A stretch of 64,000 nt of DNA, from positions 850-64,849 of the forward strand of contig CAYWDH010000010.1 in NCBI GenBank assembly GCA_964456985.1, read 5' to 3'. Shown piece after piece: positions 12,564 to 32,613 of this stretch. The first letter of the stretch is position 1. Every line of letters begins with the position of its first letter. A program made the translations under genes and the position numbers. The notes under the pieces were generated by a model. The model was not told the DNA's origin. It saw only the letters and a program-made list of their open reading frames with translations, and searched no databases. The stretch comes from an uncultured Eubacteriales bacterium (GTDB lineage: Bacteria > Acidobacteriota > Aminicenantia > Aminicenantales > Aminicenantaceae).

Positions 12564-12611
12564 TTCCCAAATTTTTTAGGGAATATATATTGTTGATTTT
12601 TTTAGGAAATT

Positions 12612-15164: not shown

Positions 15165-15491
15165 ATATTATCCTCTTAATTTTAGAAAAATCATGCAGAT
15201 TTTTATGGAATACCGTATTGTTTTTTCTTGTTATATAATTCTGAATATAAACATGAAATAATGTAATTAATATAATAAATTTTTTTATCATTATCCTTTT
15301 GCGTTTAATGCTTTTAACTGTAATATTGTCTTCAACATAAATATTAACAAAATAAACAACACTATTCAAGAAAAAAGTATATTAGATGAAGAATATCATT
15401 TGTATATATGTATTTTTTTATTAACAGGAAGCAAGTTTAAATAAGATTTCTCAATTGATGCTTTAAAAAACATATTAAATAAAATTATATA

Positions 15492-16409
15492 TTAACAATC
15501 TCTAAATTTGATTATTTTTATTATATCTCTACCGGTTTCGTCTTCAATATTTATATATATTTTTTTTACGGAATTTTCGCTATCTTTTGATATTGTAAAA
15601 AAACATGTATACAGTCCATCCTCAGTTAAAGGAATAACTGAATGTAATTTTCTTTTATTGTCTAATAAATTTATGAATGGCATCTCTCTATTTTCTTCTT
15701 TATAGATTTCATTCTCTCCTTTGTAAATTTTAAGACTTTCATTATTAACATTCCATTTTTTATTGAATATTTCAATTTTTATAGCTTTTGTTTTTTCTTC
15801 TTTTATTAAAAGTCTTATATAGAGAAAAAAATTGTTGTTTTCTTTTTTACAAGTTATCCAAACATTACTAAAGATATGTGGAAGAAAGTTATATACAATG
15901 AATATTGAAACAATACCTATACCTAAAACTACAGCAAGAAATAACAAATTTACAGCTCGTTCTCCCATTATTAATTTTGGAATATTAGAGAATATTAATA
16001 TAGAAGCCATTACACTAGTAAGGACAACAATTCCAAATGATGCGAGTAATGATCGAGGATTAGGTCTTGAAAGTGGAAGGTATTCTCTAATCCTCCTAAA
16101 AAATTCAAAAATAGATATTATCAAAAGTATAAATCCAAATATTCTAAGAAAATTAATAGATAGATCTTTTAGAAAATAAACAAAGTTGTTTAAGCAATTT
16201 AAGTTTAAAATTAATTCATTCATACTGAAAGTAACTACCCACATAATAGTTATAAACATTAATATAATTAGGAAATAAGAAAATATTTTTTCTATAAATG
16301 AAAGAGCAAATTTAATACCTAAATCTCTACCTTCATAAGCGCAAATAGAAATATATATAATTGCTATTACTCCAAAAATAACTAAAGAAATAGTAGTGAT
16401 AGAAATCAT
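15492..16409 (-). CDS. Multi-pass membrane protein with a C-terminal soluble domain
   Basis: It has about six hydrophobic segments followed by a ~110-aa soluble tail. Its start overlaps the stop of the upstream B12-rSAM gene (ATGA-type, 4 nt). Confidence 0.6.
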   Translation of the reverse strand: MISITTISLVIFGVIAIIYISICAYEGRDLGIKFALSFIEKIFSYFLIILMFITIMWVVTFSMNELILNLNCLNNFVYFLKDLSINFLRIFGFILLIISIFEFFRRIREYLPLSRPNPRSLLASFGIVVLTSVMASILIFSNIPKLIMGERAVNLLFLAVVLGIGIVSIFIVYNFLPHIFSNVWITCKKENNNFFLYIRLLIKEEKTKAIKIEIFNKKWNVNNESLKIYKGENEIYKEENREMPFINLLDNKRKLHSVIPLTEDGLYTCFFTISKDSENSVKKIYINIEDETGRDIIKIIKFRDC

Positions 16410-17809
16410 AACTTTATTTCCTTTCCTAAAGATGTTTCTAATTCGTATTCTAAAGTTGTTCTTATCTGTTTATTAGAATATTTTTTTTCAATTTCTAAAC
16501 ATAGAGTAACTAATTTCCTTCCTTTTTGCCCTCTATGAAAAGGGAAAAAATCACTTTTTTCATTTAACCAGTCATTTATATTGTATTTCTTCTCCTTTAA
16601 ACATTGTTTAAATAGAGCAGTATTAGGGTGAACATGCACAGGATTGCATGTAACTTCGTCTGGATTAATAATACTTAATAGGTTCAAAGTGTCATCTAAT
16701 TCATCTTCAGTTTCGCCTGGATATCCTAATATTATCCAAATACCAATATTTATCTTATTTTTTTTTATTATTTTACAAATATCAATAATTTCATCGTTAG
16801 TCATTCTAATATTTTTATTCATTGCATCTCTTATTTTCTCTGAACCAGATTCAAGTCCAAAATATATTTTTTTACCACCTGCTTCTGAATAATTCTTAAT
16901 TAAGTTTTCATCGATACAATCAAATCTTGTGTGCATATAAAGACTTAAACTAGAATTTAATTTTTTTATTTCTTTAAATATATCGATTGCCCTTTGTTTG
17001 TTATAAGTAAGTGTATCATCTTGGAAACGTAAATTTTTAATATGATACTTATTTAACAGGAATTTAATTTCTTCTGAAACTCTTTTTGGTTCTTGAAAAC
17101 GATATTTTTCCCAAAGTTGAGGAGAATAACAAAAATTACAGCGATAAGGGCATCCTCTTGTTGTTATCAAAGAGATAGTATTTATATTGCCAAAATTAAA
17201 AATTTCTTGATATTGAGGATATTCAGTAAAAGGTATAATGTCAGTATTATTTAACTCATTATTATTTAAATTACGTCTTGGATTTGTCTTTATTATTTCC
17301 CCTCTTTTGTTTCTGAGGACTATGCCTTCTATTTGTTCTAGTGATTGATTAGTATCTATTGAATTAATTATTTGTAATAAAGTTATTTCTCCTTCCCCAA
17401 TAACGAGTATATCAAATATATTTGAATATCTTTCTAAAAACATTTCTTGCATGATCGAAATATGTGGTCCTCCTCCAATGATAAGAATTTTAGAGTCAAA
17501 ATTTTTAATCTCTTTTGCTATTCTTATTCCATAATTACGTGTGGGGGAAGTTAAACTTATTCCTACACAATCGATATTATTTTCCTTTTCTAAAATTAGC
17601 CTTGTACTTTTAATTAAATTAATTTTTTCAGAGAACTTATTTTTTAGATATGCAAAAAATGAGTCAAGAACCAAAACCTCATGGCCTATATTTCTCAGAA
17701 TAGAAGCAAGTAAATTTATTCCAAAGACTGGATTGGAAGAATTAATTTTAGAAATTTGCCTCTTTCCTATATTCCTATTAAAGTCTGCTTCAATTAATAA
17801 TATTTTCAT
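16406..17809 (-). CDS. B12-binding-domain radical SAM protein
   Basis: It has an N-terminal Rossmann-like B12 domain (MKILLIEADF..., ILIIGGGPH) and a radical-SAM cluster, TTRGCPYRCNFCYSP. The start was set at the Met preceded by an AGGAGG RBS, not the ORF-track start at 17890. Confidence 0.85.
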   Translation of the reverse strand: MKILLIEADFNRNIGKRQISKINSSNPVFGINLLASILRNIGHEVLVLDSFFAYLKNKFSEKINLIKSTRLILEKENNIDCVGISLTSPTRNYGIRIAKEIKNFDSKILIIGGGPHISIMQEMFLERYSNIFDILVIGEGEITLLQIINSIDTNQSLEQIEGIVLRNKRGEIIKTNPRRNLNNNELNNTDIIPFTEYPQYQEIFNFGNINTISLITTRGCPYRCNFCYSPQLWEKYRFQEPKRVSEEIKFLLNKYHIKNLRFQDDTLTYNKQRAIDIFKEIKKLNSSLSLYMHTRFDCIDENLIKNYSEAGGKKIYFGLESGSEKIRDAMNKNIRMTNDEIIDICKIIKKNKINIGIWIILGYPGETEDELDDTLNLLSIINPDEVTCNPVHVHPNTALFKQCLKEKKYNINDWLNEKSDFFPFHRGQKGRKLVTLCLEIEKKYSNKQIRTTLEYELETSLGKEIKL

Positions 17810-17816
17810 ATATTTT

Positions 17817-18683
17817 TTACCAAGCCCTCCTAGATTGAAGAATTTTAATTTTAATATTAATCCTTTCTGCCATATAAATTGCAAGTTCAAGCATTTTAGA
17901 AATTCTTGTTCTTCTTACTGCTCTATTAACTGGAGGATAATCGATGCTATAAAGGTGAATTTCTATAGGATTTATAATTTTTAAAATTTCAATGTAATCG
18001 AAATTTTTTAGAGAGTTGAAGTTCTTGATGCCTGAAGAAAGAACAGCAGATGAAATTTTAATATTTCTTATTTTACTAAGATCGTTAACAATTTTTTTAA
18101 ATGAGATATTTCTATCAGGTTGATTTATATATTTAAATGTATTCTCATCAGAAACATCAAGTTTAAAAATTTTTTCATCAAATTTATCTATTGTCTTTAA
18201 AACTTTAGTATTAGCTAACATACTTCCATTTGAAAATAGTGCCAATGGCTTATTTGGAAAATATTTGTCACGTAATATCCTCGTATAATAAAATATTTCA
18301 GAGAACATTGGATGAAAGGTTGGTTCGCCATTGCCTGCAAAGGTTATATAATCTAAATGTGTTTTTTTTAAGGCATGAAATTCAAATGATGATATCAATT
18401 TTTTCTTAATTTTATAAATATCAAACTTATTAACTTCTCTGCTCAATGTATTTTTTTTGCCCCCACAATCACAGTATAAGCAGTTAAAATTACAAACTTT
18501 CTTTTCAAAGGGAAATAGATTTATTCCCAAGGAGTAGCCCAATCGTCTAGAAAGAACAGGGCCATAAACAACCATATTTTTACAGTTCCATATGAAATTT
18601 TTATAATCAACTTCTCTTTTGTAATTTATAAGGGATATTTTCCCTTTTATTATATTTTCAATGGTTTCTATCTTTTCATTCAT
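17817..18683 (-). CDS. Radical SAM protein (COG0731-like pattern)
   Basis: GPVLSRRLGYSLGINLFPFEKKVCNFNCLYCDCGG contains CxxxCxxC with the conserved GPV.SRRLG.SLGI lead-in. Confidence 0.8.
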   Translation of the reverse strand: MNEKIETIENIIKGKISLINYKREVDYKNFIWNCKNMVVYGPVLSRRLGYSLGINLFPFEKKVCNFNCLYCDCGGKKNTLSREVNKFDIYKIKKKLISSFEFHALKKTHLDYITFAGNGEPTFHPMFSEIFYYTRILRDKYFPNKPLALFSNGSMLANTKVLKTIDKFDEKIFKLDVSDENTFKYINQPDRNISFKKIVNDLSKIRNIKISSAVLSSGIKNFNSLKNFDYIEILKIINPIEIHLYSIDYPPVNRAVRRTRISKMLELAIYMAERINIKIKILQSRRAW

Positions 18684-18689
18684 AAAATA

Positions 18690-19433
18690 TCAATGGCCCT
18701 CCCAATGAAATATTGTTTTTTCGATTAATAAAAAAAGTTTATTTAATAAATAGCCAATTACTCCTGTAAGTATTATTATTGAATACATTTTAGGAATTTG
18801 AAACATCAAGTGAGAATCATATATTAATTTTCCTAGGCCAAATCTGGTCCCAATAAACATTTCTGTAACAACAACAAGAATTAAGGCTATAGAAATGCTT
18901 ATTCTTAAACCAGCAAAAATATGAGGAAACGATTCTGGAAAAATAATTTTAATGAATATTTGGAAATTACTAGCTTTCATAACTTTAGTAGATTTAATTC
19001 TCGCTTCGTTGCAATTTTTTACACCATATATTGTATAGATTATAATAATAAGTGAGCAGGAGAATATGACTACAGAAAGCTTCGCTTTATCACCTATTCC
19101 GAAGAAAAGCAAAAACATGGGAAAAAGTGCAGATGCAGGAATTGAACGGAAAAAGTCAATTATAAATTCAAAATATTCAAAAGATTTTTTAAAATAGCCT
19201 AGTATAAGGCCAAGTGGAGTCCCAATAGAGACAGCTAGTAAAAATCCCAATATGAGCCTATAACAAGTTGCAAAAAGATCTGACCATATTTCTCCCTTAA
19301 ATAATAAAAGGAAAAGTTTTTCTATTACATCTATTGGAGAAGGAAACAGAATTGGATTAACAATTTTTATTAAACTAAACATAAACCAAACAAAAATAAA
19401 AATAATCGGTCCAAGTATTATTCTTCTTTTCAT
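18690..19433 (-). CDS. ABC transporter permease (NitT/TauT/SsuC-type)
   Basis: It has six TM segments and an EAA-like loop (KASNFQIFIKIIFPESFPHIFAGLRIS). It overlaps the ATPase gene by 4 nt. Confidence 0.85.
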   Translation of the reverse strand: MKRRIILGPIIFIFVWFMFSLIKIVNPILFPSPIDVIEKLFLLLFKGEIWSDLFATCYRLILGFLLAVSIGTPLGLILGYFKKSFEYFEFIIDFFRSIPASALFPMFLLFFGIGDKAKLSVVIFSCSLIIIIYTIYGVKNCNEARIKSTKVMKASNFQIFIKIIFPESFPHIFAGLRISISIALILVVVTEMFIGTRFGLGKLIYDSHLMFQIPKMYSIIILTGVIGYLLNKLFLLIEKTIFHWEGH

Positions 19434-20206
19434 TTCAAAATGGCCTTCCTGAATATATCTACAGCTTCTTTTTTTAGGCGAGAAAAATCATTAGAAATCA
19501 TCATTTGTTGTTTTCTTGGGCGAGGAAGATCGATATTCATTATATTTGCTACTTTTGTTGGCTTTTTTGCTAAAAAGACCAGTTTGTCTGCTAAATAAAT
19601 AGACTCATCGATGTCATGCGAAACAAACAGTATAGTAGATTTGGTCTTATTCCAAATTTCTAAGATTTTATCTTCCATAAAAACACGTGTCTGAAAATCT
19701 AAAGAATTAAATGGTTCATCCATTAAAAGGATTTGTGGTTTATTAATAATTGCTCTTGCTATCGCTACAAATTGCTGTTGGCCAGTACTAAGTTCATATG
19801 GATAGAGATTATTTTCAATGTTAATTCCCAGTTTATGTTCAAGCTCAAGAACACTCTTATGTCTTTCCTTTTTCTTTATTCCTTCCAATTCTAAAGGAAA
19901 GGCAATATTATCAATATTTTTTCTCCAAGGCAAAAGGGTTTGTTGAAAATTTTGAAAGATATATGCTGTTTTAGATTCACTTGGGTTTTTTCCATTTATT
20001 AAAACTTTACCTCCATTATAAGGTAATAAACCGGATAATATGTTTAAAAAAGTGGTCTTCCCACTTCCATTTGGCCCAAAGAATGTTACAAACTCTCCCT
20101 TTTTTATTACCAAATTAAGATCTTCAATTACAGATAAATATGTAGATTTTTTTTTGTTTCGATGAAAAGATTTGTATAAATGTTTTACAATTACATAATC
20201 ATTCAT
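19430..20206 (-). CDS. ABC transporter ATP-binding protein (SsuB/TauB-type)
   Basis: It has Walker A GPNGSGKTT, signature LSTGQQQ and Walker B ILLMDEPF. Confidence 0.9.
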   Translation of the reverse strand: MNDYVIVKHLYKSFHRNKKKSTYLSVIEDLNLVIKKGEFVTFFGPNGSGKTTFLNILSGLLPYNGGKVLINGKNPSESKTAYIFQNFQQTLLPWRKNIDNIAFPLELEGIKKKERHKSVLELEHKLGINIENNLYPYELSTGQQQFVAIARAIINKPQILLMDEPFNSLDFQTRVFMEDKILEIWNKTKSTILFVSHDIDESIYLADKLVFLAKKPTKVANIMNIDLPRPRKQQMMISNDFSRLKKEAVDIFRKAILK

Positions 20207-20220
20207 TGTTTTTTCTTGAA

Positions 20221-21183
20221 TTATTGTTCATAATAAATCAATGAAGTATCTATTTCCTTATTTAAAACTCCCCATTCAAATAATAAATTGGCGAGTTTTT
20301 GGATAGAATTTCTGTCAATGTTTTCTAATTTCCAATATTTTAGTGGTTTGAGTTTATCTATAACTTCTACTTCTATATTTGTCCATTTTGCAAGTATCTT
20401 TTTTACCTCAGGAATATTTTTGGGATTATCTAAAAAGTCTAGTGCATTATACATTGCTTTTTTTATTTTTTTTGCATCTTCTGGATATTTTTTTATGAAT
20501 TCTGATGAAAAAGCACTTCCCGATCCAGGCAAAGGACTCATTACATATTTTGCTAATGGGGCTTTTTCTAATACTCTTGAAATACCCTTTACAATACTTA
20601 CTGTTGCAATTGGTTCTAATGCGAAAATAGCATCTACTTGTTTGGATTCAAGGGCTTGAATTTGCAATGAAGGTTTCAGTTGTATAATATCAATATCAGT
20701 TTCTGGATTCATAAAATTACTAAGAATAATTTTGGTATAGGTAAGAATAGTTGATCCAGGGTATATCCCTATCTTTTTTCCTTTGAGGTCTGATATATTT
20801 TCTATTTTAGAGTCTTTTTTTACTAAAATATAATCAGGAAAAAATTTTTCGTTTATTACATTTACTATATATATTTTAAATTGTCCGGGTTTTTGTTGCT
20901 CTATAGAAAAAACAACAGGGAAAGCACTAGTAGCAGTCCCATCAATTCTTCCACTAATAAGAGCTTCTGCCATTAGATTTGCAGAAGAAAACTCAACAGC
21001 ATCAACTTCAATTCCTTCTTTTTTAAAAAAACCTTTTTCGATTGCTACAAAGAAATGTTGATAAATTTCTGTCTTTTGATAACCAATTTTTATTTTTCTT
21101 GTTTGTTCAATACAACAAAGTTGCATTGAAATGATAATAATTATTAATAATGATATAATATTTTTTCTCAATGCTCTCTCCAA
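20221..21183 (-). CDS. ABC substrate-binding protein (NMT1/THI5/SsuA-like)
   Basis: It has an N-terminal anchor/signal and a periplasmic-binding-protein pattern (GKKIGIYPGST, VDAIFALEP). Confidence 0.8.
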   Translation of the reverse strand: MERALRKNIISLLIIIIISMQLCCIEQTRKIKIGYQKTEIYQHFFVAIEKGFFKKEGIEVDAVEFSSANLMAEALISGRIDGTATSAFPVVFSIEQQKPGQFKIYIVNVINEKFFPDYILVKKDSKIENISDLKGKKIGIYPGSTILTYTKIILSNFMNPETDIDIIQLKPSLQIQALESKQVDAIFALEPIATVSIVKGISRVLEKAPLAKYVMSPLPGSGSAFSSEFIKKYPEDAKKIKKAMYNALDFLDNPKNIPEVKKILAKWTNIEVEVIDKLKPLKYWKLENIDRNSIQKLANLLFEWGVLNKEIDTSLIYYEQ

Positions 21184-21479
21184 TTTTTTTATAACTAAAT
21201 CTTTATTTCGTATTCCATTTTATTTATTAATTACTGGTTTTTTTAAGTTTTCATCATCTGTGTCTAATTTTTTACTTCTAAATTGTTCTGTTTTTATAGT
21301 ATATATATATTTAATAAACAATTCCAGTCGATGGAAAGTCAAATAATTTAGATAAATTTCAAGTTAAGTTATGATCTTATACGTTTTAATTATTCATAGA
21401 TAATATATTGCTAATGTATCTAATAATTTTTTTTAATCTAGATAGTTAATATTTTATGATGTGATAATATATTTTTGTT

Positions 21480-21917
21480 TTATCCACCCAACATCTCCAG
21501 CAATTCCGAACAGCCCGTATAATTCAGAATCAATTCCTTATTATCCTCTATCAATTCCTTCTCCTGCCCCAGCACCTCCTCAATAAGCTCCAAAATATCT
21601 CCTTCGCCTTCCCAATTTTCCTCAATAATGGCTGGATCTTTGGTCCGTTTTTTTATCTCATTGGCAATAAAAGCGCAGAAGTAGATATCATCAATATAGC
21701 CGTAAGGGCCGTGGATCTCTTCAGAGATCACATCAGCAGGAATGATAAAATAGGCAATAGCACAGGATACCAATGGCTTTAACCGGTAAGGCATCCGGGA
21801 GTCATCCAAGAGATTGGTCATGAGTTTATACCATTCAGGTGTAAGGAAAATAAAGTCATCATGTCTTCCCTCATAGGCCTTAATATCGTTTTTTAATTTG
21901 TCATAAAAATTTTTCAT
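21480..21917 (-). CDS. DUF1232 (YkvA)-like protein
   Basis: AIAYFIIPADVISEEIHGPYGYIDDIYF resembles the DUF1232 core (Y.i.P.DliPD...G..DD). It begins 13 nt downstream of the helicase-nuclease stop. Confidence 0.5.
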   Translation of the reverse strand: MKNFYDKLKNDIKAYEGRHDDFIFLTPEWYKLMTNLLDDSRMPYRLKPLVSCAIAYFIIPADVISEEIHGPYGYIDDIYFCAFIANEIKKRTKDPAIIEENWEGEGDILELIEEVLGQEKELIEDNKELILNYTGCSELLEMLGG

Positions 21918-21930
21918 ATCACACCTTCAC

Positions 21931-24747
21931 TTATTTTTTAAAGTAGGGACATATTTCTTTAAACTCATCGCAAAAAGGACAAAATTCCTCTCTTGGCTCA
22001 AATTCCTGGTTTTTGATCTTTTGGATCCAGCCTGAAAGATTGGATTCCGCGGTTTTTCTTTTGCCATCATCCCAGTCTATAGTCTGCGGCTCATTATCCT
22101 CTAGAAAATAAAGAGAGCGGTCCGAGATGTTGAGGTTCAATCCTTTTTCAGCACCTAGTGCGTAGATATCCATCTGATGGTCGTACTGCTCTATACTTGA
22201 GGCTTTGGAACGAGTGGTTTTAAAGTCAACGATCTCTTTATAATCATTATTTCCATTTCTTATGAGATCGATCTTGCCTCTTACCACTGCTCCCTCTTGT
22301 TCAAAGGCAAAGGGCTCCTCTGCGGAAAAGAGATCGGAGCGGGATGGTTTTTGTTTTTCCATGTAGTTTTTTATCTGATCGACAGCTTGTCGTTTTTTTT
22401 GGATCTCTTTTTCTCCTTTTAACTTTTCAGGCATAAGCCAGGTTTTATCAACATAGTCTAGGATTTTATTGAGCTTTACTTCTTTCTCTTCGAGGATGTC
22501 CTTGTGTATGAGTTCCAACGCTCTATGCACAGAAGCTCCAAAATAAAAATAGCTTGATATGGGAGGCTTTAATCCGTCAATGACAAAATACTTATATCTT
22601 AGAGGACACTGCAGGTAGTAGGATATGTGGCTGTAGGTTATTCTAAGCCGGGGCTCTTCAGAAGCTTTATCCAGGTGTTCGATATGGATAGGGGAGTTGA
22701 GGATTTTCTGGCTTCTTTGAATAGCGCCTTTTGTGTTTTTGCCCAAAAGTTCGTTTACAAACCGGGAAGGGCCGCCTCCTCTTTTGTTGACCACGTCAGA
22801 TGATCCGATAATCAGGAGATCTCTGGCGCGGGATGCAGCCACATAGAAGAGTTTTCTCTCGTCCACAATGTGAGGGTCTTCGACTTCGGGTTTGCCGCTT
22901 GTTCTAAGTTCATAGGGGATCTCATACTTTTCCCTTCTTCTTCGGGTAGGGAACCGTCCCTCCATGGCAGCGCCTATGACCACGACCGGGAATTCAAGGC
23001 CTTTAGCCTGATGCACAGTCATGATCTGGAGGGCATCTTGAGTGGGTTCAGTGAATGAGTCAATGCCGCTCTGTTTGAGCAGCTTCATGTAGGAGATAAA
23101 AGGGTAGATTACATTTGTGCCTCTGTATTCATCAAATTCAGAGATGATTCTTGTGAATATACCGATGTTTTTTATAGCCTCTTTGTTTTTTTGTTTTTCC
23201 ATGCGGTTGAAATATCCTGAGATGCGCTGGAGGTCGTAGAATATTTCCAGGATGGATTGATTTTTTCTTTGTTGGACTTTTTTCTTAAGTTCAATAAGAG
23301 CTAATAATTTCTCTCTATCTTTTTTTCTTTTTATCCCTATGGATTTGATGTCTTTTTCGTTTTGAAGCGAGGTGATGTCTTCTTTAAACTTTTCTAGCTT
23401 TTTTTCGGTTTTTTTATCCAGGCCGAGGAGTTTACATCTTATGAATCTGTCACCCCAGGGCTTGGGGGCAGACAGGAATAGAAACAAATTATAGATGTCT
23501 GAGATCTCTTGTCTTTCAAAAAATCCTCCATCTCTGTGCACGATATAGGGAATTTTGTATTTTCCCAGAGATTCTTTGTAAGGATCTGCATAGGATCTTA
23601 CACTTCTTAAAAGAATAGCCACATCCTTGTAGTGTGTGATGGTTCCGTCCAGTTTCAGTTTCTTTAATATTTTGACAACCGAATCAGCTTCATCTTCTGC
23701 TGTTTTTTCGTGGACGTAAAGAATATCGTTTTTCCATTCTTTACGGATGCATCGGAGTGATTTGGCTGAGCGGCACTCGTTGCACACTATGAGGCGTGAG
23801 CTGTGGATAATAATAGGCTCAACGGAACGGAAATTATCCTCTAATTTCACAGTTTTGATCGGCTTGTATTTTTCAGGAAATTCCAGAATGTTTTTAACCG
23901 TGGCTCCTCTGAAGCGGTAAATGCTTTGGTCATCATCTCCCACCACAGCGATATTCATCTTAGGCTCTGCAATCAAGCTCAGTATCATATCCTGCACGGT
24001 ATTGGTGTCCTGGTATTCGTCGATCAATACATATGTGTAGCGGTTTTGTATTGTTTCAAGGACGTCTTTGTTTTCTTTAAGCATTTGAAGGGTATGCTTC
24101 TGGAGGCTGCTGAAATCCGTGGCATTGGTTTCCATGAGCAGATCCAGGTAGTTTTTGTAGGCATTGGCAATAAGGAGCTGTTCTTCCCAGAAGGCCTGGC
24201 TGTCTTCATCGGCGCTTTTTAGATTTTTTTCGCAGTAGGAGATGAATTCTTCGGGGTTGATAAGCTCTTCCGTAGCCAGATTAAAGGTGCGGAGAGCAGA
24301 GGCATAGAAATCGCTTTCTCTTCCTTTCATGACTTTACCGAAGCCGAGTTCTTTTCTTCGGGAATAGATAAAGAGAAGCTGGGCCGCTTCATCCAGCACC
24401 CAGAAGCCTTTTGGGAAGGGGCTTTTTGAGCGGAACTCATTGAGGAGGGAGTAGCAGAGGGAATGGATGGTTGAGACCTGCATAAGCTCTACATTTTCGT
24501 TTTTGAGCTTGGACTGGATCCTGTCTTTAAGCTCTAGGGCTGCTTTTTCCGTGAAAGTGGTCACCAGCAGATTTTGAGGGTTGGCTTTGCCTGAGGATAT
24601 AAGATAGGCAGTTCTCTGGCTTATCACTTCTGTTTTTCCGGAGCCTGGCCCGGCTATGATAAGGAGAGGTCCGTCATGATAATTAATGGCTTCTTCTTGG
24701 GCAGGAGTTAGCTGTTTTTTGGGTTGGGAGCTATTTTCAGTTGCCAT
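21931..24747 (-). CDS. UvrD/PcrA-family helicase fused to a C-terminal Cas4/AddB-like PD-(D/E)XK nuclease with a Cys cluster
   Basis: Helicase motifs are GPGSGKTEV, DEYQDTN, VGDDDQSIYRFRGA, TVHQAKGLEFPVV and YVAASRARD. Nuclease motifs are YYLQCPLRYKY, GKIDLI...EIVDFKT, QMDIYAL and CPFCDEFKEICP. Confidence 0.9.
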   Translation of the reverse strand: MATENSSQPKKQLTPAQEEAINYHDGPLLIIAGPGSGKTEVISQRTAYLISSGKANPQNLLVTTFTEKAALELKDRIQSKLKNENVELMQVSTIHSLCYSLLNEFRSKSPFPKGFWVLDEAAQLLFIYSRRKELGFGKVMKGRESDFYASALRTFNLATEELINPEEFISYCEKNLKSADEDSQAFWEEQLLIANAYKNYLDLLMETNATDFSSLQKHTLQMLKENKDVLETIQNRYTYVLIDEYQDTNTVQDMILSLIAEPKMNIAVVGDDDQSIYRFRGATVKNILEFPEKYKPIKTVKLEDNFRSVEPIIIHSSRLIVCNECRSAKSLRCIRKEWKNDILYVHEKTAEDEADSVVKILKKLKLDGTITHYKDVAILLRSVRSYADPYKESLGKYKIPYIVHRDGGFFERQEISDIYNLFLFLSAPKPWGDRFIRCKLLGLDKKTEKKLEKFKEDITSLQNEKDIKSIGIKRKKDREKLLALIELKKKVQQRKNQSILEIFYDLQRISGYFNRMEKQKNKEAIKNIGIFTRIISEFDEYRGTNVIYPFISYMKLLKQSGIDSFTEPTQDALQIMTVHQAKGLEFPVVVIGAAMEGRFPTRRRREKYEIPYELRTSGKPEVEDPHIVDERKLFYVAASRARDLLIIGSSDVVNKRGGGPSRFVNELLGKNTKGAIQRSQKILNSPIHIEHLDKASEEPRLRITYSHISYYLQCPLRYKYFVIDGLKPPISSYFYFGASVHRALELIHKDILEEKEVKLNKILDYVDKTWLMPEKLKGEKEIQKKRQAVDQIKNYMEKQKPSRSDLFSAEEPFAFEQEGAVVRGKIDLIRNGNNDYKEIVDFKTTRSKASSIEQYDHQMDIYALGAEKGLNLNISDRSLYFLEDNEPQTIDWDDGKRKTAESNLSGWIQKIKNQEFEPREEFCPFCDEFKEICPYFKK

Positions 24748-24767
24748 TTTTCCCTTATGCTCTTCTT

Positions 24768-25865
24768 TTATATCAGTGTATGAGGCCTTTCAAAGGCAAT
24801 CACAATGAGTTCGTCTCCTTTGCTGAACACTTCGAATACAGATGGCTTGGGATTGAGAAGCACTTTGTCCTGTGTTTTCACTCCGATGGGGATCACGGGG
24901 TTTTTTTTGTCTCTGTTGGAATAGATGTCAGCTCCTAGCTGGGAAAAGCTCTTTCCTATGTAATCTTTTGGCACTGGGATGAGGTATATCTCATTGGTCT
25001 CTTCTGAAATGGTCAGGAGGTTTCTGTAGACTTTACTGAGGCCGTGGACAAGGGAGGTCTGGGCAAGGAGGAGAGAGCTGAAATCGCCTGCGGAAATGAT
25101 CTCATCTGCGCCGGCGCGTTTTAGATGATCGATATTTTGAGGGGAGACTCCTTCTACGGCTGTATAGGTTTTGGGAAGGTTGAATTCGCTGCACAGACTT
25201 CTAATTCCCATACACACGAGAATGGATTTGGCATCTGCCAGGTCTCCCTGTTTGGGATCAGCTAAGACCACCACTGTATAGGCATTATGCACATTGGCTC
25301 TTTTTAAAATGATCTCATTTGTGGGGTCGCCTTTTATGATGTAGACATCTTCGAATTCAGGTACGTCTTCGTGTTCTGGAAAATCCACCTCATCTTCCTG
25401 ATCGGTTATGATCACAATTGGTCTTTTGTTCGTTACTATTTTGGCGTGGACTTCTTTTACCAAAGGCAGGCCTTTGGTATTCCAGTTGCAGATCACTATG
25501 TGATTTTTTAATTCATATTTTGGCATTTTTCTTTTACCTCCTATACGATGTTCCACCAGCATTGAGGCAATGGTGGCTGTGAAGATCCCTACAATACCAA
25601 GGCTCATGACCAGGATCATAGTCACGATGATCTTGCCTATTGTGGTCTGCGGAACACCGCTGTCTAAGCCGCTGAAGAGATACACAGCAATATTCCAGAG
25701 GGATTTGGGGAGTGAGTTGAATTCTGTATTTTGAGCGCCTTCAGTGAACCAGAGAATGGAGGCTCCGATAAGCCATATGAATATGATGATGGTAATCAGG
25801 CGGGCGATTTTGTAGTCTCTGAAGAGCTTTGTGAGCGGCCATGCAATGCGGTTTATATTTTTCAT
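24768..25865 (-). CDS. Two-TM ion channel with a cytoplasmic RCK/TrkA-N domain and a non-canonical pore
   Basis: Two TM helices flank a pore-loop region, LWNIAVYLFSGLDSGVPQTTIGK, which lacks a TVGYG filter. An RCK-like Rossmann domain follows (HIVICNWNTKG...). Its stop lies 20 nt upstream of the helicase start. Confidence 0.8.
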   Translation of the reverse strand: MKNINRIAWPLTKLFRDYKIARLITIIIFIWLIGASILWFTEGAQNTEFNSLPKSLWNIAVYLFSGLDSGVPQTTIGKIIVTMILVMSLGIVGIFTATIASMLVEHRIGGKRKMPKYELKNHIVICNWNTKGLPLVKEVHAKIVTNKRPIVIITDQEDEVDFPEHEDVPEFEDVYIIKGDPTNEIILKRANVHNAYTVVVLADPKQGDLADAKSILVCMGIRSLCSEFNLPKTYTAVEGVSPQNIDHLKRAGADEIISAGDFSSLLLAQTSLVHGLSKVYRNLLTISEETNEIYLIPVPKDYIGKSFSQLGADIYSNRDKKNPVIPIGVKTQDKVLLNPKPSVFEVFSKGDELIVIAFERPHTLI

Positions 25866-26011
25866 GGATGTGTTTTTATGTTATCTATCTAATTTTTTGC
25901 TTAGCTGACAATTAGAGATAAACATATCACAACAGGAATCATTTGGTCAATGGGAGCTTCTTTTAGGTGGGCTTGATGAACAGGAAAATGGTTTGTTTTT
26001 TAAACAACCAT

Positions 26012-26440
26012 TTAATACATGACGATTTTGGCCACTTCTTTTGGGTACTTATTCAGTTTCTTGCGATAATCCTCTAAATTCTTGAGATCATATTGAAGCC
26101 TTTTTTTTGCTTTTTTCAACATGAAATTATATAAATCTCGCTTTGCATTTATTCTAGCCCTAGCCCTTTTTTTTGCTTTATCTTCTCTTTTAGTGGAAAC
26201 TAGAGTGGCGGCAAGTTTAATCTTGAGTTCCTCTGTTAAATCAAGAATTTCTAGTCTAATTTGAAATTCTCGTATTGTCTTTCTAGAAAACTCAACCTCT
26301 CTTCCTAATCTCTCTAGTTGAACTTCTGAAGTTCTTTTAAAAAATTTATCTGCTAACTGGCATGATATAAGAGACATTGTTATAAAAAATAGTAATAAGA
26401 TTCTAGATGATTTGGTGAAGAAAATTATTTTGTTAAACAT
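26012..26440 (-). CDS. Coiled-coil lipoprotein, hypothetical
   Basis: It has the lipobox LISC followed by a charged helical sequence. Confidence 0.5.
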   Translation of the reverse strand: MFNKIIFFTKSSRILLLFFITMSLISCQLADKFFKRTSEVQLERLGREVEFSRKTIREFQIRLEILDLTEELKIKLAATLVSTKREDKAKKRARARINAKRDLYNFMLKKAKKRLQYDLKNLEDYRKKLNKYPKEVAKIVMY

Positions 26441-26941
26441 ATTAACCTCCTTTTGCTATGAAGAATATGTCTAATTATCAACCCTTATATTTATATAAAC
26501 CCCAATATTAAATAAGCAGTAAGATTAATATTGACGTCGTGCAAATCAATCTTTTTAAAACATGGGAAACATGATGATGAGAGACAAATCCTGCGGGAGT
26601 AAAAGACATGACAAACTGCACGTAAGGTCAATTTAGAATTAAGAAAGTGCATAAATGAATTATATGGGGATCAATCAACATTAGCAACTCTCGCACATCA
26701 CTTTTATTGATGAGAGGGAAAAAACTCAGTTCAGAAAAGATGGCTAGCTAGCGTTCAGGTCTGGAGAAGTTGCTTGATCATAACAAAAACTTAGATGTCA
26801 ATTTTCTAAATAATTATTGTATTGGTATTAAGTGATATATATTTGAAATATCTACTTAAATTAAAAAATTCTTTATTGAATCAATTTGATTGAATATAAT
26901 CAGATTGTTACAAAAAGGGAAATTGTTCGGAGGCAATAACC

Positions 26942-29068
26942 ATGACGACTGTAATCAAAATACTGAATCAAATTGAAAACAAAGAATTAGTATTACCGGA
27001 ATTCCAAAGGGAATTCACATGGAACAGGGATCAAGCCAAAAAGCTTATCGCTTCTTTTCTAAGTGATTTTCCTACAGGAGCTCTTTTATTCTGGAAGACA
27101 AAAGAGAACATTGCTTTGAAAAATATGCCTGACTTTACCCCAGATGGAAGGGTAGAGGTAATTTTAGATGGCCAGCAGCGTTTGACAACGCTTTATCTTC
27201 TTATTAAAGATGACATTCCATTATATTACAGCAAGAAAGATATTGGTGATGGAAAGGATATTAGACACCTCTATTATAATCTTGAAACAGGGGAACTTGA
27301 ATATTATAAGAAGGCAAAGATGCAGAACAATCCGAGATGGGTTAGAGTTACTGATTGCTACAAAGAGGAGAGAGTTGATGATTATGATATTGCTGAAGAG
27401 ATCAGCCAGAAGGAAGACATTGAATTTAGGTCGATTTCTAGAATATTAAGAGACAATCTAACTAAATTAAGAAACATAAAAGAAAAAGACTATCAAATAA
27501 TATATGTCAAAGACACATCAAATCTAAGGGAAGCATTGACAGTATTTGATAGAATCAATAGTGCGGGCACACCATTATCCCAAGCAGATATTGCCCTGGC
27601 TCATATGTGCAGCAGATGGCCGGATACAAGACGCATTTTTAAAGAAAAAATAAGGGAATTAAAAAAATACGGCTTTGAATTCGATCTAACATTTTTAGTT
27701 CGGGCAATGAATGCGGTTGTCAACAAGCGGGCAGAATACAAACAACTCCATGATAATACCGAGGAAGAACTCAAAAAAGGATTTAAGAAATTAGAGGGGA
27801 TACTTGATTATTTGGTAAATATACTGAGAGACAGAGCCTATATCTATGGGACTGATGATTTAAATACCACTAATGTATTGATTCCTATGATTGGTTATTT
27901 GTCGTTATATGGGCCCGAATTCAATAGTGAATCCACGATGAAAAAGATGTTTTACTGGATGTACACTGCATTGTATAAGAGAAGATTTGCTAGCAGTGTG
28001 GACCAAAAGTTGGAGGATGACCTTGGCTGCTTAAAGCCTGATTTTACTCCGGATAAAGATCCGACTGATGATCTTCTTGATAATCTCAAGGAGGATCAAG
28101 GGGACCATGAGGTTACAAAATCAAATCTCTGTATGCGTGGAATAATCCACCCTTTGTATAACATGGCAAACATTGTAATTCGGGCAAATGGCGGATTTGA
28201 TTGGGGTAAAGGAATAAACCTTTCACAGCCCTATGGAAAAAAATTCAAAGTGGAATGTCATCACATCTTTCCTCATTCGATCTTACTAAAGAGTGGTTAT
28301 GAGACAACTAATCTGCATCATCAAAAATTAATTAACGAGATCGCGAATCGAGTTCCATTGACCAAAAAATCTAATATGGAAATATTTACCAAAGAACCGC
28401 GTGAATATTTTCCTGTTCTTGAGAAAAGATACCCTGGTAATCTAGAACGCTTTTTCATTCCTATGAACAAAAAGCTATGGAAAATTAAGAATTTTGAGGG
28501 CTTTCTTGAAAAAAGAAGAGAATTAATAGCAGAGGGGATTAATGAATTTATGAAAAATCTGATTGAGAGCCAAGATACAGGTGCGGAAACAGAAGATATT
28601 TTATCGCTGGTGAAGCAAAATGAAGGAGAAAAATTGGAATTCAAGTCTTCATTGAGGTGGAATCTTAATCAACAGGATTGGGATAAAAATCTTGAAAAGG
28701 TTGTGTTAAAGACAATATCTGCGTTTTTGAATGCCTCAGGAGGGAAGTTGCTTATTGGCGTGAAAGATGACGGGTCAATATTCGGAATAGAAAAAGAACT
28801 GAAAAGATTCGGCAATGAGGATAAATTTGAAATCCATCTGTCGAACATTATTGAGGCAAATATTGGGAAAAATTTTATGCCATATATTCATATTGAGTTT
28901 CATGAATTAGAAGGGAAAACAATTTGTTTGGTGAGTGTAGAAAAAAGTCCAAGACCTGCTTATCTAAGATGCGGAAATCAAGAGCAGTTTTTTGTTAGAT
29001 TAGGAAACCACTCTAAGGAATTGAGTGTTGCTGAGGCCCTGGATTATGTTAAAGAGCATTGGGATTGA
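26942..29068 (+). CDS. GmrSD-type (DUF262 + DUF1524/HNH) nuclease fused to a C-terminal AlbA_2 (Schlafen-like) DNA-binding domain
   Basis: DUF262 motifs are LPEFQREFTW and DGQQRLTT. DUF1524 motifs are ECHHIFPHS and NRVPLTKKSN. The C-terminal part, EGEKLEFKSSL...ISAFLNASGGKLLIGVKDDGSIFGIE, is typical of AlbA_2. Confidence 0.85.
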   Translation: MTTVIKILNQIENKELVLPEFQREFTWNRDQAKKLIASFLSDFPTGALLFWKTKENIALKNMPDFTPDGRVEVILDGQQRLTTLYLLIKDDIPLYYSKKDIGDGKDIRHLYYNLETGELEYYKKAKMQNNPRWVRVTDCYKEERVDDYDIAEEISQKEDIEFRSISRILRDNLTKLRNIKEKDYQIIYVKDTSNLREALTVFDRINSAGTPLSQADIALAHMCSRWPDTRRIFKEKIRELKKYGFEFDLTFLVRAMNAVVNKRAEYKQLHDNTEEELKKGFKKLEGILDYLVNILRDRAYIYGTDDLNTTNVLIPMIGYLSLYGPEFNSESTMKKMFYWMYTALYKRRFASSVDQKLEDDLGCLKPDFTPDKDPTDDLLDNLKEDQGDHEVTKSNLCMRGIIHPLYNMANIVIRANGGFDWGKGINLSQPYGKKFKVECHHIFPHSILLKSGYETTNLHHQKLINEIANRVPLTKKSNMEIFTKEPREYFPVLEKRYPGNLERFFIPMNKKLWKIKNFEGFLEKRRELIAEGINEFMKNLIESQDTGAETEDILSLVKQNEGEKLEFKSSLRWNLNQQDWDKNLEKVVLKTISAFLNASGGKLLIGVKDDGSIFGIEKELKRFGNEDKFEIHLSNIIEANIGKNFMPYIHIEFHELEGKTICLVSVEKSPRPAYLRCGNQEQFFVRLGNHSKELSVAEALDYVKEHWD

Positions 29069-29269
29069 TTGTAATAATGTTTTAAGATTGCATTCTCTTA
29101 AAATAGCTTATAGGCATAGTGTTAGTCACATGACTATAAATTAATCCCCCCCTCCATGATAATTAACGGATTGGCCACACACACACAAATATTTCCTATT
29201 CCTGGCATCTTTTCATAAATTGCTTTATAATTTTTCCAAATTGTGGACAGGGTTGAACCTAAACGGCTT

Positions 29270-29992
29270 ATGTACAAAATATCAGTCGGCAGCGTCACCA
29301 TAGATGTTGTAAGAAGAGACATAAAGAACATTCATCTCTACATAGATCCCCCTTATGGAAGAGTGTGGATGTCAGCACCGAAATGGCTTGCTGAAAAAGA
29401 GTTGCGGTCATTTGCCCTCTCGAAATTGCAATGGATAAAACACCATCAGGAACGATTCATAAAGCTAAAACTACGACAAGCAAGGAAATATATTTCCGGT
29501 GAAAGCCATTATTTTTTAGGAAAGCCCTACAAACTCAATGTTATTCACCAATCCCCGCACTCGCGTGATAAAGTGAGGATCCGGGATGATAGATTTCTGG
29601 ACCTCTATGTGCGCAAAGGAAGCGATAGGGAGCGAAGAGAAAGGATCCTAACGGAATGGTACCGGAAGCAATTGAAAGATATTCTCCCATACTTTATCGA
29701 AAAATGGGAGGAAAGGATCGGAGTGGATGCCGATGATTGGGGTGTTAGGCGGATGAAGACCAAATGGGGCTCATGCAATGTTACGGCAAAACGCATTTGC
29801 TTGAATCTGGAGCTAGTCAAAAAACCTCCACTTTGTCTTGAATATATTTTGATTCATGAATTGGTGCACTTTCTGGAGCCTTCTCATAACAGCAGGTTCA
29901 AAGCCTTCATGGATAAGTTCATGCCGGATTGGAGGATTATGGAGAAGGAGCTCAATAGACTTCCTATAGAACATAGCGATTGGGTTTATTGA
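29270..29992 (+). CDS. YgjP-like (DUF45/M48-type) zinc metallopeptidase
   Basis: It has HELVHFLEPSH (HExxH) and WGSC...RICLNLEL. The start was set at the MYKISVGS Met. Confidence 0.8.
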   Translation: MYKISVGSVTIDVVRRDIKNIHLYIDPPYGRVWMSAPKWLAEKELRSFALSKLQWIKHHQERFIKLKLRQARKYISGESHYFLGKPYKLNVIHQSPHSRDKVRIRDDRFLDLYVRKGSDRERRERILTEWYRKQLKDILPYFIEKWEERIGVDADDWGVRRMKTKWGSCNVTAKRICLNLELVKKPPLCLEYILIHELVHFLEPSHNSRFKAFMDKFMPDWRIMEKELNRLPIEHSDWVY

Positions 29993-30231
29993 TGACACTT
30001 TAAAAGATTTGGATATTGGCGGAGAAGATAAAAGCAGATCATTCGCATTGTGATATATTCTCCATTAGATTCAATAGATATACAGCGCGGGAATTTATTT
30101 TTGTTCTGCAAGAAGATCATTCCAAAGTTAAGAATACAATTATCAATAGTTTCTTGAGATCTGAATGGGGAAAAGGAAAAAATCCTCATTTTACTTTTAG
30201 TAAGCAGTTCTGAGATCCCCTCTCGTAATTA

Positions 30232-30249
30232 GGGGACGAGCCCGGACCC
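30232..30249 (+). repeat. Isolated 5'-terminal fragment of the ~100-nt repeat family (GGGGACGAGCCCGGACCC)
   Basis: It matches the invariant 5' end of the family with two mismatches, and the similarity stops after ~18 nt. Confidence 0.3.
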
Positions 30250-30319
30250 AGAACTCTTCTTTTAAATTGACAATTCTATTATCAAATAGTATTTTTCTTA
30301 TAAGTAAAAGGAGGGAATA

Positions 30320-31660
30320 ATGAGATCGGGTAAAATATCTGTTTTATTTCTGTTTTTAATAGTCTTCTCAGTTCAGGCCCAGAACAAGAATCTAGATAAC
30401 CGCTGTCAAACTGTGGAATTGCCTGATCATAAGACATTTAAAGTAGATGCAAGAGAAATGAATCAAAAATATAATTCCAGATTCAAATCCCAGGACAGAG
30501 TCCAGATCATTCTTAAAAATATGAATCCGTTTCTTTTTGAATACAAGGTGACTATCAATGCAGTGCCGGTTCCGGAACCTGCATTAGAATATTTTTTCTC
30601 AATTTTGCCTGGGTTAGAAGAAATCGTGTCCGTTGAGGCAGCTGAAAACCGCGTCTTAATTAAAAAAGAGGATCTAGATGATTACAATAAAGCCATGGAG
30701 GAAGCTATTGAGCTGTATGAGAAGATAAGAAGTGAAATTAATAACGCGAACAAACTACTTAAAGATCATCAACATATTCTCCAATCAGAAAGGGCATCAT
30801 GTGCGGACCTGGTTGATACAGCACAAAATCTAAAAAAAGAAATGGAAGAAGGAATAAAAAAGATTGAAAAAATGGCAGATGACTTCAAATGTGCTATCTG
30901 TTCCATAGAGAAAAAAGTTGAGCCATATAAAGATAGTATAGACGTATCATTCAAAGACAAAATAAATGAGCTTAATCGTGGTTATAAACTAGTTGAAGAA
31001 AATATAAAAGACTACAAGAAAAGATTAAACTCCCTTAAAAAAACACTAGGGCGTCTTGAAAATTTCACTAAAAGCTACACCATCGGGCCTTATGGTGCGC
31101 CAACTGACGTAAAGGTCGAGATTGAACGAAAAAATCTCAAAATTAAAGGGGCGAAATTCGAGTCATTGATGACAGCAAAACTAAATTTCGGAGGAGGCCC
31201 GCGCTTCGCACTAGCCGCAGGTGTGGGTTTTTCATTCCTGGATAAAAGAACTTACATAAAAGCTTGGGGCTTTGAGCTTGATCGCAGTGGAAATCCTGTA
31301 GTACCGAGAAATGATACTGCGGTCGTTAGTAAGGGGGAAGACTCGAACAGTCGTTCTTTTATACTTTTAATGCTCCACACTCGGGTGTTTGATTTATTTG
31401 AGCAGGGAACCTTTCATATTTCTTTAGGGATTACAGGCAAAACAGAAGATGACAAAGTTGTAGAGTACATAGGAGGTGTTTCCCTGGGTCTTGCTGAAGA
31501 GCGGCTCTTTATGACTCTGGGCTTACACTACGGAAAACTTCAGGAGCTGGATAAACAGGTGTATATCGGCGCTCCTGTTCCGGAAGATGTGAATGATATT
31601 CCGGTAACGAATAAATGGGAATGTGCTCTTGCCTTTTCCCTGACCTACAAGATCAAATGA
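30320..31660 (+). CDS. Secreted hypothetical protein (coiled-coil N-half, beta-rich C-half)
   Basis: It has a strong RBS (AAAGGAGGG) and the signal peptide MRSGKISVLFLFLIVFSVQAQ. The C-terminal alternating-hydrophobic strands suggest an outer-membrane barrel. Confidence 0.6.
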   Translation: MRSGKISVLFLFLIVFSVQAQNKNLDNRCQTVELPDHKTFKVDAREMNQKYNSRFKSQDRVQIILKNMNPFLFEYKVTINAVPVPEPALEYFFSILPGLEEIVSVEAAENRVLIKKEDLDDYNKAMEEAIELYEKIRSEINNANKLLKDHQHILQSERASCADLVDTAQNLKKEMEEGIKKIEKMADDFKCAICSIEKKVEPYKDSIDVSFKDKINELNRGYKLVEENIKDYKKRLNSLKKTLGRLENFTKSYTIGPYGAPTDVKVEIERKNLKIKGAKFESLMTAKLNFGGGPRFALAAGVGFSFLDKRTYIKAWGFELDRSGNPVVPRNDTAVVSKGEDSNSRSFILLMLHTRVFDLFEQGTFHISLGITGKTEDDKVVEYIGGVSLGLAEERLFMTLGLHYGKLQELDKQVYIGAPVPEDVNDIPVTNKWECALAFSLTYKIK

Positions 31661-31713
31661 TACAAGCAGAACATAATCCTTTGTATTGATTAAGCATCGA
31701 TACTGATTTTTAT

Positions 31714-32148
31714 TTATTTTTGATCCTTTTTCTTTTTGATTGCTTCAGCAGCCCGATGTAAAAATTTACCAAAGTATTTAGGATTGTAGCTGACGATGAA
31801 GCTTACCACAGAGACAACGCTTGCCAGCCGTGCGTATTGTTCAGGAGTCTGCGGGGATATGGGCGGTGATTGTAAAACGATTATCATGCCGGAGATGATC
31901 AATAGGTACACTATAAATCCCCTGATAATTCCTGAAAGATAGGGATTAATGGGATCAACTGGAAATTCATCAGTTTCTTCCTGTTTGCTAATGACGTGTA
32001 ATGTGGCACAACGACCGAGCGCGCCAAGAAGGCCTGTGAGTATGCTTAATAGCGCTACGTTTGTTGGCGTGTATACCAGCAGAACAATGATCCAATTGAT
32101 GAAATCATTCAGGAATGTCGTATCAGGTGTTTTGGACGCTATCTTAGG
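31714..32148 (-). pseudogene. 5'-truncated duplicate of the membrane-protein gene at 33108-33686
   Basis: It is near-identical at the nucleotide level to 33127-33553. The frame is closed by a TAA just upstream and has no native start. The fragment ends exactly where repeat copy B begins. Confidence 0.65.
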
Positions 32149-32155
32149 TGTTTAA

Positions 32156-32258
32156 GGGGACGGGCCCGGACATCTTCAATCATATCAATAAGATAACCCC
32201 ATTTTTCCACAACCAGCCTCCCTGAAGTACTCCTATTTTTTAGCCCCTAAATCAGCAG
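32156..32258 (+). repeat. ~100-nt repeat family, copy B (most divergent 3' half)
   Basis: It reads GGGGACGGGCCCGGACATCTTCAATCATATCAATAAGATAACCCCATTTTTCCACAACC...AAATCAGCAG. Confidence 0.85.
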
Positions 32259-32312
32259 CTTAATGCGTAAGAGCTTAACTGACAGGTAATCATGTAAGAC
32301 GGCTTTGTTTAA

Positions 32313-32603: not shown

Positions 32604-32613
32604 TTTATCCTCC

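Follow-up and report, generated by a model that had tools for sequence, protein, structure and literature searches.

A candidate mobile defence cassette: a UvrD-Cas4-like helicase-nuclease, a DUF1232-like protein and an accessory RCK channel

In a 64,000-nt stretch of DNA (the window) from the metagenome-assembled genome (MAG) of an uncultured Aminicenantes bacterium (assembly GCA_964456985.1, contig CAYWDH010000010.1, positions 850 to 64,849), we identified a mobile three-gene cassette (window positions 21480-25872, minus strand) that encodes a predicted cation channel, a helicase fused to a nuclease, and a DUF1232-like protein. The limits of the cassette, drawn from DNA homology to other genomes and metagenomes, coincide with the three genes. 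The helicase-nuclease and the DUF1232-like protein form its constant core, and the channel is an accessory, dispensable third gene. Our preferred reading, held tentatively and with slightly less than even confidence, is that this is a mobile defence cassette in which foreign DNA is attacked by the pair, with the channel as a membrane effector in those loci that have it. Organisms, tree tips and loci carry the labels used within this analysis (L###, P####, G###, and C## for contigs of the window's own genome).

The three proteins of the cassette

The three open reading frames (ORFs) are co-directional and occupy 25865-21480 of the minus strand. The channel gene (24768-25865) lies 20 nt ahead of the helicase-nuclease gene (21931-24747), which is followed after 13 nt by the DUF1232-like gene (21480-21917). 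The ORF calls, the two gaps and the Pfam matches confirm the tight channel / UvrD-nuclease / DUF1232 operon proposed in the initial annotation. Both junctions of the block are spanned by Logan contigs of two sediment-metagenome runs, which excludes an assembly chimera. The arrangement was found again in at least 11 distinct loci elsewhere, and is more than a chance juxtaposition. Promoter and terminator scans gave counts equal to the shuffled expectation.

The central protein (938 aa) joins an SF1A UvrD/PcrA-type helicase domain (residues 1-690; 22678-24747, minus strand) to a C-terminal Cas4/AddB-like PD-(D/E)XK nuclease domain with four Cys (residues 691-938; 21931-22677, minus strand). Pfam matches were UvrD-helicase (E = 2.9e-72), UvrD_C (1.5e-36) and PDDEXK_1 (6.1e-24; residues 702-934), and the protein matched PcrA (9.3e-74) among PDB sequences, as well as AddA, AdnB, RecB and GajB. 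The helicase part has intact motifs I, II, III, V and VI (GPGSGKT, DEYQD, GDDDQSIYRFRGA, HQAKGLEF and YVAASRA). The nuclease domain has the motifs GKIDLI and VDFK, and its Cys residues (C714, then C923-x2-C926-x6-C933) follow a Cas4/AddB-type pattern; its match to the NCBIfam cas4 model (1.2e-09) is under that model's cut-off. Pfam and the motif check thus agree with the UvrD helicase with a C-terminal 4-Cys PD-(D/E)XK nuclease that had been read from the sequence.

With an SF1A core and a four-Cys PD-(D/E)XK domain, in which an Fe-S cluster is putative, the protein belongs with the UvrD-Cas4-like fusions, the largest branch of pfam12705. These are monophyletic, occur in bacteria and mesophilic archaea, and have a defence role predicted from their genomic context, being found with type III restriction-modification (RM), with Dcm-Vsr, or as stand-alone genes (Hudaiberdiev et al. 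2017, PMC5704561). They share with the window protein the N-terminal SF1 UvrD and the C-terminal Cas4-like 4-Cys PD-(D/E)XK domain; however, neither a DUF1232-like nor an RCK channel partner is mentioned in PMC5704561, whereas the window cassette has both.

AddAB, RecBCD and AdnAB likewise carry a UvrD-like motor and a RecB-type nuclease on one chain, and DNA ends are the likely substrate. The window protein differs in being a single chain that is accessory rather than core, with no AddB/RecC/RecD-type gene beside it, its neighbours being the channel and DUF1232-like genes. All its NCBIfam equivalog scores fall far under the cut-offs (addA_Gpos 171 bits against 707; recB 126 against 696). Nor does it classify as a housekeeping PcrA/UvrD, given a pcrA score of 352 bits against a cut-off of 911 and a partner gene with a patchy distribution. 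Gabija also has a UvrD-family helicase (GajB) and resides in defence islands, but no GajA (OLD/TOPRIM ATPase-nuclease) adjoins the window helicase, whose nuclease is fused and of Cas4 type, and whose partners are the DUF1232-like protein and the channel.

The obligate partner of the helicase-nuclease is a protein of 145 aa, predicted to be soluble and all-alpha. It matches Pfam DUF1232 (PF06803; 3.9e-07; 30.2 bits against a cut-off of 23) and has the core motif of this family. The AF2 model (pLDDT 89.5, pTM 0.87) is a compact bundle of 11 short helices, for which a fold search against the PDB gave no match with E < 2. A role as membrane anchor, with a YkvA-like transmembrane (TM) helix, was considered and rejected: hydropathy reaches a maximum KD19 of 1.68, in a single marginal window, and the model has no TM helix. 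The window's own genome has exactly one such gene.

A profile of the whole ~140-residue module matched 1280 cluster representatives (clusters at 50% identity) at E <= 1e-3, 531 at <= 1e-10 and 37 at <= 1e-30. Some longer proteins have the module fused to MZB plus Schlafen AlbA_2, to AlbA_2 alone, to DpnI_C, or to DUF2064/phosphomannose-isomerase (PMI) (examples are P0270, P0260, P0277, P0336 and P0352). MZB is the Zn domain of YprA/MrfA helicases. The DNA-related fusions would suit a module that serves as adaptor or regulator in systems of nucleic-acid conflict. We also observed that a pair of genes for a BrxC/BrxD-like ATPase and a DEAD-box helicase recurs within a few kb of DUF1232-like genes (L112/L253, L122, L128, L141, L142 and L157); in Methanothrix it adjoins the helicase-nuclease/DUF1232 pair, and in five Methanobrevibacter loci it occurs without a UvrD-Cas4 gene.

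The channel (365 aa) is predicted to be a 2-TM, single-RCK cation channel of the MthK/CASTOR type. Pfam matches to Slo-like_RCK (8.9e-16), TrkA_N (2.3e-11) and Castor_Poll_mid (8.4e-09), together with two TM-like stretches in the hydropathy profile, support the initial call of a 2-TM channel with an RCK/TrkA-N domain. Residues 30-353 match MthK among PDB sequences (1.7e-14), and Foldseek with the AF2 model (pLDDT 81.9) retrieved full-length MthK (E = 3e-17). The predicted layout, from sequence and model, is that of MthK: two TM helices around a pore helix and loop, then a cytoplasmic RCK domain. There is exactly one such channel gene in the window's own genome.

The pore loop (FSGLDSGVPQTT; residues 64-75; 25641-25676, minus strand) has a non-K+-type filter with an acidic residue. 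Its FSGLDSG aligns to the TVGYGD of MthK (TVGYGDYSP), so that FSGLD stands opposite TVGYG and the K+-selectivity signature T-V-G-Y/F-G is absent; the missing GYG had been noticed before, and this alignment bears it out. In 37 homologues S65, G66 and P72 never vary and D68 and S69 hardly do, giving a family-wide filter Y-L-F-S-G-L-D-S-G-x-P-x-T, in which the central Gly is kept and Y-G becomes L-D. The FSGLD-type filter is common to helicase-linked and unlinked channels, and one linked channel (L031) has LGEYGD, which is K+-like. We therefore rejected the idea that the pore is a special adaptation of helicase-linked channels; ion specificity is not what defines the linkage.

CASTOR is a non-GYG RCK channel that is Ca2+-selective and whose filter, ADS(A)GNHA, has an essential Asp (PMC6697748). 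The window channel shares with MthK and with plant CASTOR/POLLUX/DMI1 the 2-TM pore and the cytoplasmic RCK, and with CASTOR a non-GYG filter with an Asp; it scores 35.8 bits with Castor_Poll_mid (cut-off 26.7) and has D-S-G within the filter. It differs in that FSGLDSG is neither TVGYG nor ADS(A)GNHA (ADSGNHA), and in that one RCK per subunit was detected, against two in tandem in CASTOR/POLLUX/DMI1. The CASTOR entries in the PDB comprise the soluble part only, and the CASTOR pore was outside the alignment. A non-K+-selective cation pore is plausible from the filter sequence.

Nucleotide binding by the RCK domain, which the initial annotation had raised, finds little encouragement in the sequence. 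The beta-1 loop reads H-I-V-I-C-N-W-N-x-K-G, with HxVICNWN invariant across the channel family, and the GxGxxG dinucleotide-binding loop of KTN/RCK domains is missing (ICNWN instead). Classical nucleotide gating is for this reason not favoured.

A conserved pair with an optional channel

Loci were collected with a channel-anchored scan (80 genome loci with channel relatives) and a DUF1232-anchored scan (79 genome loci and 80 metagenome loci). Linkage of the three genes was upheld in other genomes, in two gene orders. The three-gene block was found in Aminicenantes, 'Eubacteriales', Spirochaetota, archaeal bins and metagenomes, with gaps of -4 to 38 nt between its genes. The order channel, helicase-nuclease, DUF1232 occurs in the window, in L005/L006 (Aminicenantes), L007, L008 ('Eubacteriales') and L009/L010 (Spirochaetota), and in the metagenome loci L169, with overlapping genes (stop/start codons), and L172/L173, adjoining an IS element and a TIR protein. 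In L027 (Sumerlaeota) the helicase-nuclease and DUF1232 genes probably come after the channel. The order helicase-nuclease, DUF1232, channel is found in L031 (archaeal bin) and in metagenome locus L170, where a GmrSD gene precedes the block; L170 represents the permuted order a second time, independently of L031.

A UvrD-PD-(D/E)XK gene lies directly upstream of the DUF1232 gene in 32 of the 34 genome loci with room for it and, deletion alleles aside, in every metagenome locus with room except L237. The start and stop codons of the two genes often overlap by 4 nt. Hosts of the pair include Chloroflexota, Methanothrix, Ignavibacteriota, Spirochaetota and Bacillota bins. The three-gene unit initially proposed is therefore borne out as a linkage and not as a fixed unit: the conserved core is the pair, the channel accompanies it in 9 of 35 scored loci (about a quarter), and in some loci (L091 and L093) the channel is decayed. 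We did not find a recurring alternative third gene in the channel-less loci; upstream of their pairs are Pif1 plus a 281-aa protein, BrxC/D plus DEAD, an 812-aa protein, PMT and others, none of which repeats.

Neither partner was present within 8 kb of channels with 30-57% identity in Planctomycetota, Cloacimonadota, Hydrogenedentota, cyanobacteria and others. In Cloacimonadota an lpxD-lpxC-fabZ-lpxA block ends with the channel gene and adjoins tig-clpP. Another unlinked homologue, 56% identical (L175; GCA_004196315.1, SDBT01000181.1), has a radical-SAM gene on either side, and an integrase and a HicB-like gene are nearby.

In the channel tree eight linked channels form one clade (SH-aLRT 95), and those of L169, L170, L027 and L031 lie elsewhere among unlinked channels; linkage takes 5 state changes on this tree, and supported branches force at least 3 of them. 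The helicase tree was rooted on a paralogue from contig C85 of the window's own genome (described below), and this root rests on a long outgroup branch. Channel-bearing loci in it are L170, L169 and 7 members of a 13-member clade, and a 34-member Chloroflexota/Methanothrix clade is without the channel. Channel presence takes 3 state changes, as few as in none of 500 shuffles, and is thus clustered. The two trees share the same branching among channel-bearing loci (the Spirochaetota pair; then L008/L092, L172/173, and the window with L005), which indicates that the three-gene block has been co-inherited across phyla. The history of the channel may be one of early presence and later loss, or of several gains.

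The limits of the cassette are precise. DNA homology (blastn) between the window and L005, at 91% identity, sets in at 25872, 7 nt ahead of the channel ATG; homology to L177, L178, L218 and L220 stops at 21479-21485, the stop codon of the DUF1232 gene. The flanks differ: L005 has GmrSD, a SAP-domain protein with a weak FokI-like match, and AbiE, and the window has a lipoprotein ORF. An imperfect direct repeat of 31 nt (77% identity) is present at 21247-21277 and 25872-25902; its second copy begins exactly at the cassette's upstream limit of homology. The DNA is AT-rich, and the repeat could be due to chance.

Several loci carry decayed alleles. A ~3-kb in-frame deletion in L218, L220, P0202 and P0206 joins helicase codon ~46 (...EVISQR) to DUF1232 codon ~50 (...PADVISEE). 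We describe these alleles as hel(1-50)::DUF(49-145); that of L220 has an extra stop. The deletion falls at short similar motifs (AYLI/AYFI, VIS), with slightly different junctions in two samples. In L091 an internal deletion joins TM1 of the channel to residue ~145 and is accompanied by a stop, and in L093 only a channel remnant is left. Since the helicase-nuclease and DUF1232 genes are intact in both loci, the pair can persist without the channel. The L220 contig (1-7944; Ga0190344_1001668) starts at channel residue 148 and ends at residue 119, so that its ends lie 84 nt apart in one gene; between them are the hel::DUF deletion allele, AbiEii/AbiEi-like genes, a SAP/FokI-like gene of 515 aa, and GmrSD. 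This contig may represent a circular element of ~8 kb or a tandem arrangement.

Accessory status and defence context

The host MAG, from Aminicenantes, comprises 3.03 Mb in 102 contigs and is 86% complete. It has two further UvrD-family genes, a 977-aa UvrD-PD-(D/E)XK on contig C85 and a PHP-UvrD on contig C4, and the window helicase-nuclease is thus not the only UvrD-type helicase of the organism. The C85 paralogue has the same architecture as the window protein, with 29% identity. Each of the nine species of the genus, and 25 of 31 relatives, has a single copy, and its identity falls with distance, from 93% to 62%, the mark of vertical inheritance. A close DUF1232 orthologue, on the other hand, was found in two of the nine species (the window's own genome and G008, 95% identical) and in G058 of the same order (65%), that is, in 3 of 61 relatives, or 4 of 61 when a 35%-identical homologue in G013 is counted. 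A search of 400 other genomes of the phylum gave no close DUF1232 orthologue, only distant homologues of at most 41% identity. The window helicase-nuclease is an accessory extra copy, not the housekeeping enzyme.

Base composition was tried as a mark of foreign origin and rejected, the GC content of the cassette (0.429) being at the 59th percentile of a genome with a mean of 0.422. The flanks of the cassette are low in GC, with 0.308 (0.4th percentile of the genome) at window positions 3900-21479 and 0.365 at 25873-33000. Within the former, an ABC-importer/radical-SAM operon (15492-21183) has a GC of 0.27, a value below that of any 4.4-kb window of the genome.

The block is part of a defence island (about 3.9-31 kb of the window) that also contains an HNH protein, a module of a DprA-like protein with methylase/nuclease and SNF2, Mrr, DUF6884, a GmrSD-Schlafen AlbA_2 fusion, and YgjP. 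Other three-gene loci have defence genes in their surroundings: GmrSD, AbiE and the SAP-domain protein with its weak FokI-like match in L005, GmrSD, an SLFN helicase and MazG in L170, and TIR in L173. With PADLOC, 129 genes flanking 32 pair loci matched 175 families (E <= 1e-10), and 129 genes flanking 23 unlinked channels matched 5; this is a rough control, in which families rather than genes are counted and many models are redundant, although the contrast is still large. The strong matches near the pair included type IIG RM (to 4.8e-288), Hhe (9e-172), Shango SngB/SngC and HEC-05, and further BrxH, DrmMI, AbiLi and PDC-S37. The expectation that the block would lie near defence genes was upheld.

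Possible function, rival explanations and neighbouring genes

In the mechanism that we propose, the helicase-nuclease would load on free or unprotected ends of invader DNA, and unwind and degrade it in a RecB/AddA-like manner, with the DUF1232-like protein as a regulatory or adaptor subunit. The channel, where present, would be a second-line membrane effector: its RCK ring would be opened by a signal from the engaged helicase-nuclease/DUF1232 complex, and the cation flux would collapse the membrane potential, with an abortive-infection-type outcome comparable to the logic of RexAB. Gating would be by protein contact or by some ligand, rather than by a classical GxGxxG-bound dinucleotide, and the pair would also work without the channel. 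Such a cassette would follow the sensor-plus-membrane-effector logic that the initial annotation had suggested; the steps beyond gene linkage and context are ones that we infer. The points on which the proposal could fail at the level of sequence had been set beforehand (linkage in other genomes, and whether this is the sole helicase), and it passed on all of them.

RexAB of phage lambda and Zorya (ZorAB with ZorC/D) combine a cytoplasmic part that senses or processes DNA with a membrane part that conducts ions. The likeness to the cassette is one of functional analogy only, since the protein families are unrelated; the window channel is an MthK-type 2-TM/RCK protein, and not MotAB-like as are ZorA/ZorB. 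To our knowledge, no member of the MthK or CASTOR/POLLUX/DMI1 families is operonic with a DNA enzyme. Literature searches on DUF1232 with helicase or defence, and on RCK or ion channels with anti-phage activity, returned nothing relevant, and no described system matches the three-gene cassette. A more specific claim, which we consider doubtful, is that this is a new anti-invader system in which a RecB-like helicase-nuclease, via a soluble adaptor of DUF1232 fold, gates an MthK/CASTOR-type RCK channel and so would turn the detection or processing of foreign DNA straight into a transmembrane cation flux; it would be the first classical tetrameric RCK channel in immunity and the first function for a DUF1232 fold.

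A number of observations weigh against a defence cassette with a membrane effector. At many pair loci, especially in Chloroflexota, Pfam shows ordinary metabolic genes as neighbours. The channel is dispensable, being missing from most pair loci and decayed in L091 and L093, and both its coupling to the nuclease and its gating signal are hypothetical. Filters vary among the linked channels, as L031 exemplifies, and most channel relatives are unlinked, some of them in housekeeping operons. PADLOC assigns the helicase only to generic UvrD models, GajB (best 1.4e-70) and a DRT-associated helicase; PADLOC v2 has no model for the channel or for the DUF1232-like protein, and neither matches any of its models. 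Searches of plasmids, phages and IMG/VR viral contigs gave no copies of the cassette, and its base composition is not foreign. The sequence was found in DNA metagenome runs only, not in RNA runs.

Some of the same facts can be read in other ways. The channel might be a sensor or anchor rather than an effector, its RCK ring tethering the helicase-nuclease/DUF1232 complex to the inner membrane at the point of entry of foreign DNA, or an ionic signal of phage injection being relayed to the nuclease, for example by admitting the divalent cations needed by PD-(D/E)XK nucleases; this appears unlikely. The arrangement would resemble Zorya, with its membrane complex plus soluble nuclease/helicase. This reading draws on the same linkage and exact cassette limits, on the conserved filter Asp, as in Ca2+-selective CASTOR, and on the soluble DUF1232-like protein, which could be the adaptor. 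Channel-bearing loci are moreover basal on the paralogue-rooted helicase tree, so that the channel may be ancestral, but that root depends on its long outgroup branch. A large clade has an intact pair without a channel, as do loci with a decayed channel, one linked channel has the K+-like LGEYGD filter, and the interaction itself is conjectural, all of which speak against this role. To a similarly low degree we credit a pair that is an accessory module of DNA repair, recombination or replication restart, with the channel as a hitch-hiking ion-homeostasis gene. The pair's architecture is indeed that of the housekeeping UvrD-PDDEXK paralogue, its neighbours are metabolic at many loci, and the channel family is mostly unlinked and housekeeping, with channels lost without loss of the pair. 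Against this reading stand the adjacency of the three genes in two orders, with stop/start overlap in L169, the exact boundaries, the patchy distribution among relatives that have the housekeeping paralogue, the 175 PADLOC families against 5, and a DUF1232 module that elsewhere is fused to defence-type DNA-binding domains.

Very improbable, in our view, is a selfish addiction cassette of the toxin-antitoxin kind, with the nuclease or the channel as a toxin checked by the DUF1232-like protein and maintained by post-segregational killing. In its favour are a small protein whose gene follows, with translational coupling, that of a potentially toxic nuclease, recurrent inactivating deletions (hel::DUF in L218, L220, P0202 and P0206, and the channel in L091), and IS elements and defence islands as neighbours. 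But a defence system that is costly would be just as likely to leave decay alleles, and the deletion alleles keep only the C-terminal part of the DUF1232-like protein, one of them with a stop. The helicase-nuclease is large with fully intact motifs, unlike typical toxins, and the plasmid and phage searches gave no copies.

If the preferred reading of a mobile defence cassette is true, the widespread, uncharacterised UvrD-Cas4 fusion enzymes would be the basis of a new defence family, and the soluble DUF1232 branch, with its ~530 clusters (50% identity) at E <= 1e-10, would gain a role. It would show that a DNA enzyme can be coupled to a canonical, RCK-gated tetrameric cation channel. The two-gene and three-gene versions would offer a natural comparison for learning how a membrane or abortive layer is added to direct degradation, and channel biophysics would gain a CASTOR-like non-GYG filter from a prokaryote, together with a likely physiological trigger for it.

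Next to the cassette, at 26012-26440 (minus strand), is an ORF of 142 aa with a GC of 0.30. It has no Pfam match and is not upstream of the cassette in related loci; it encodes a signal peptide with a lipobox-like LISC, followed by a Lys/Arg-rich coiled region.

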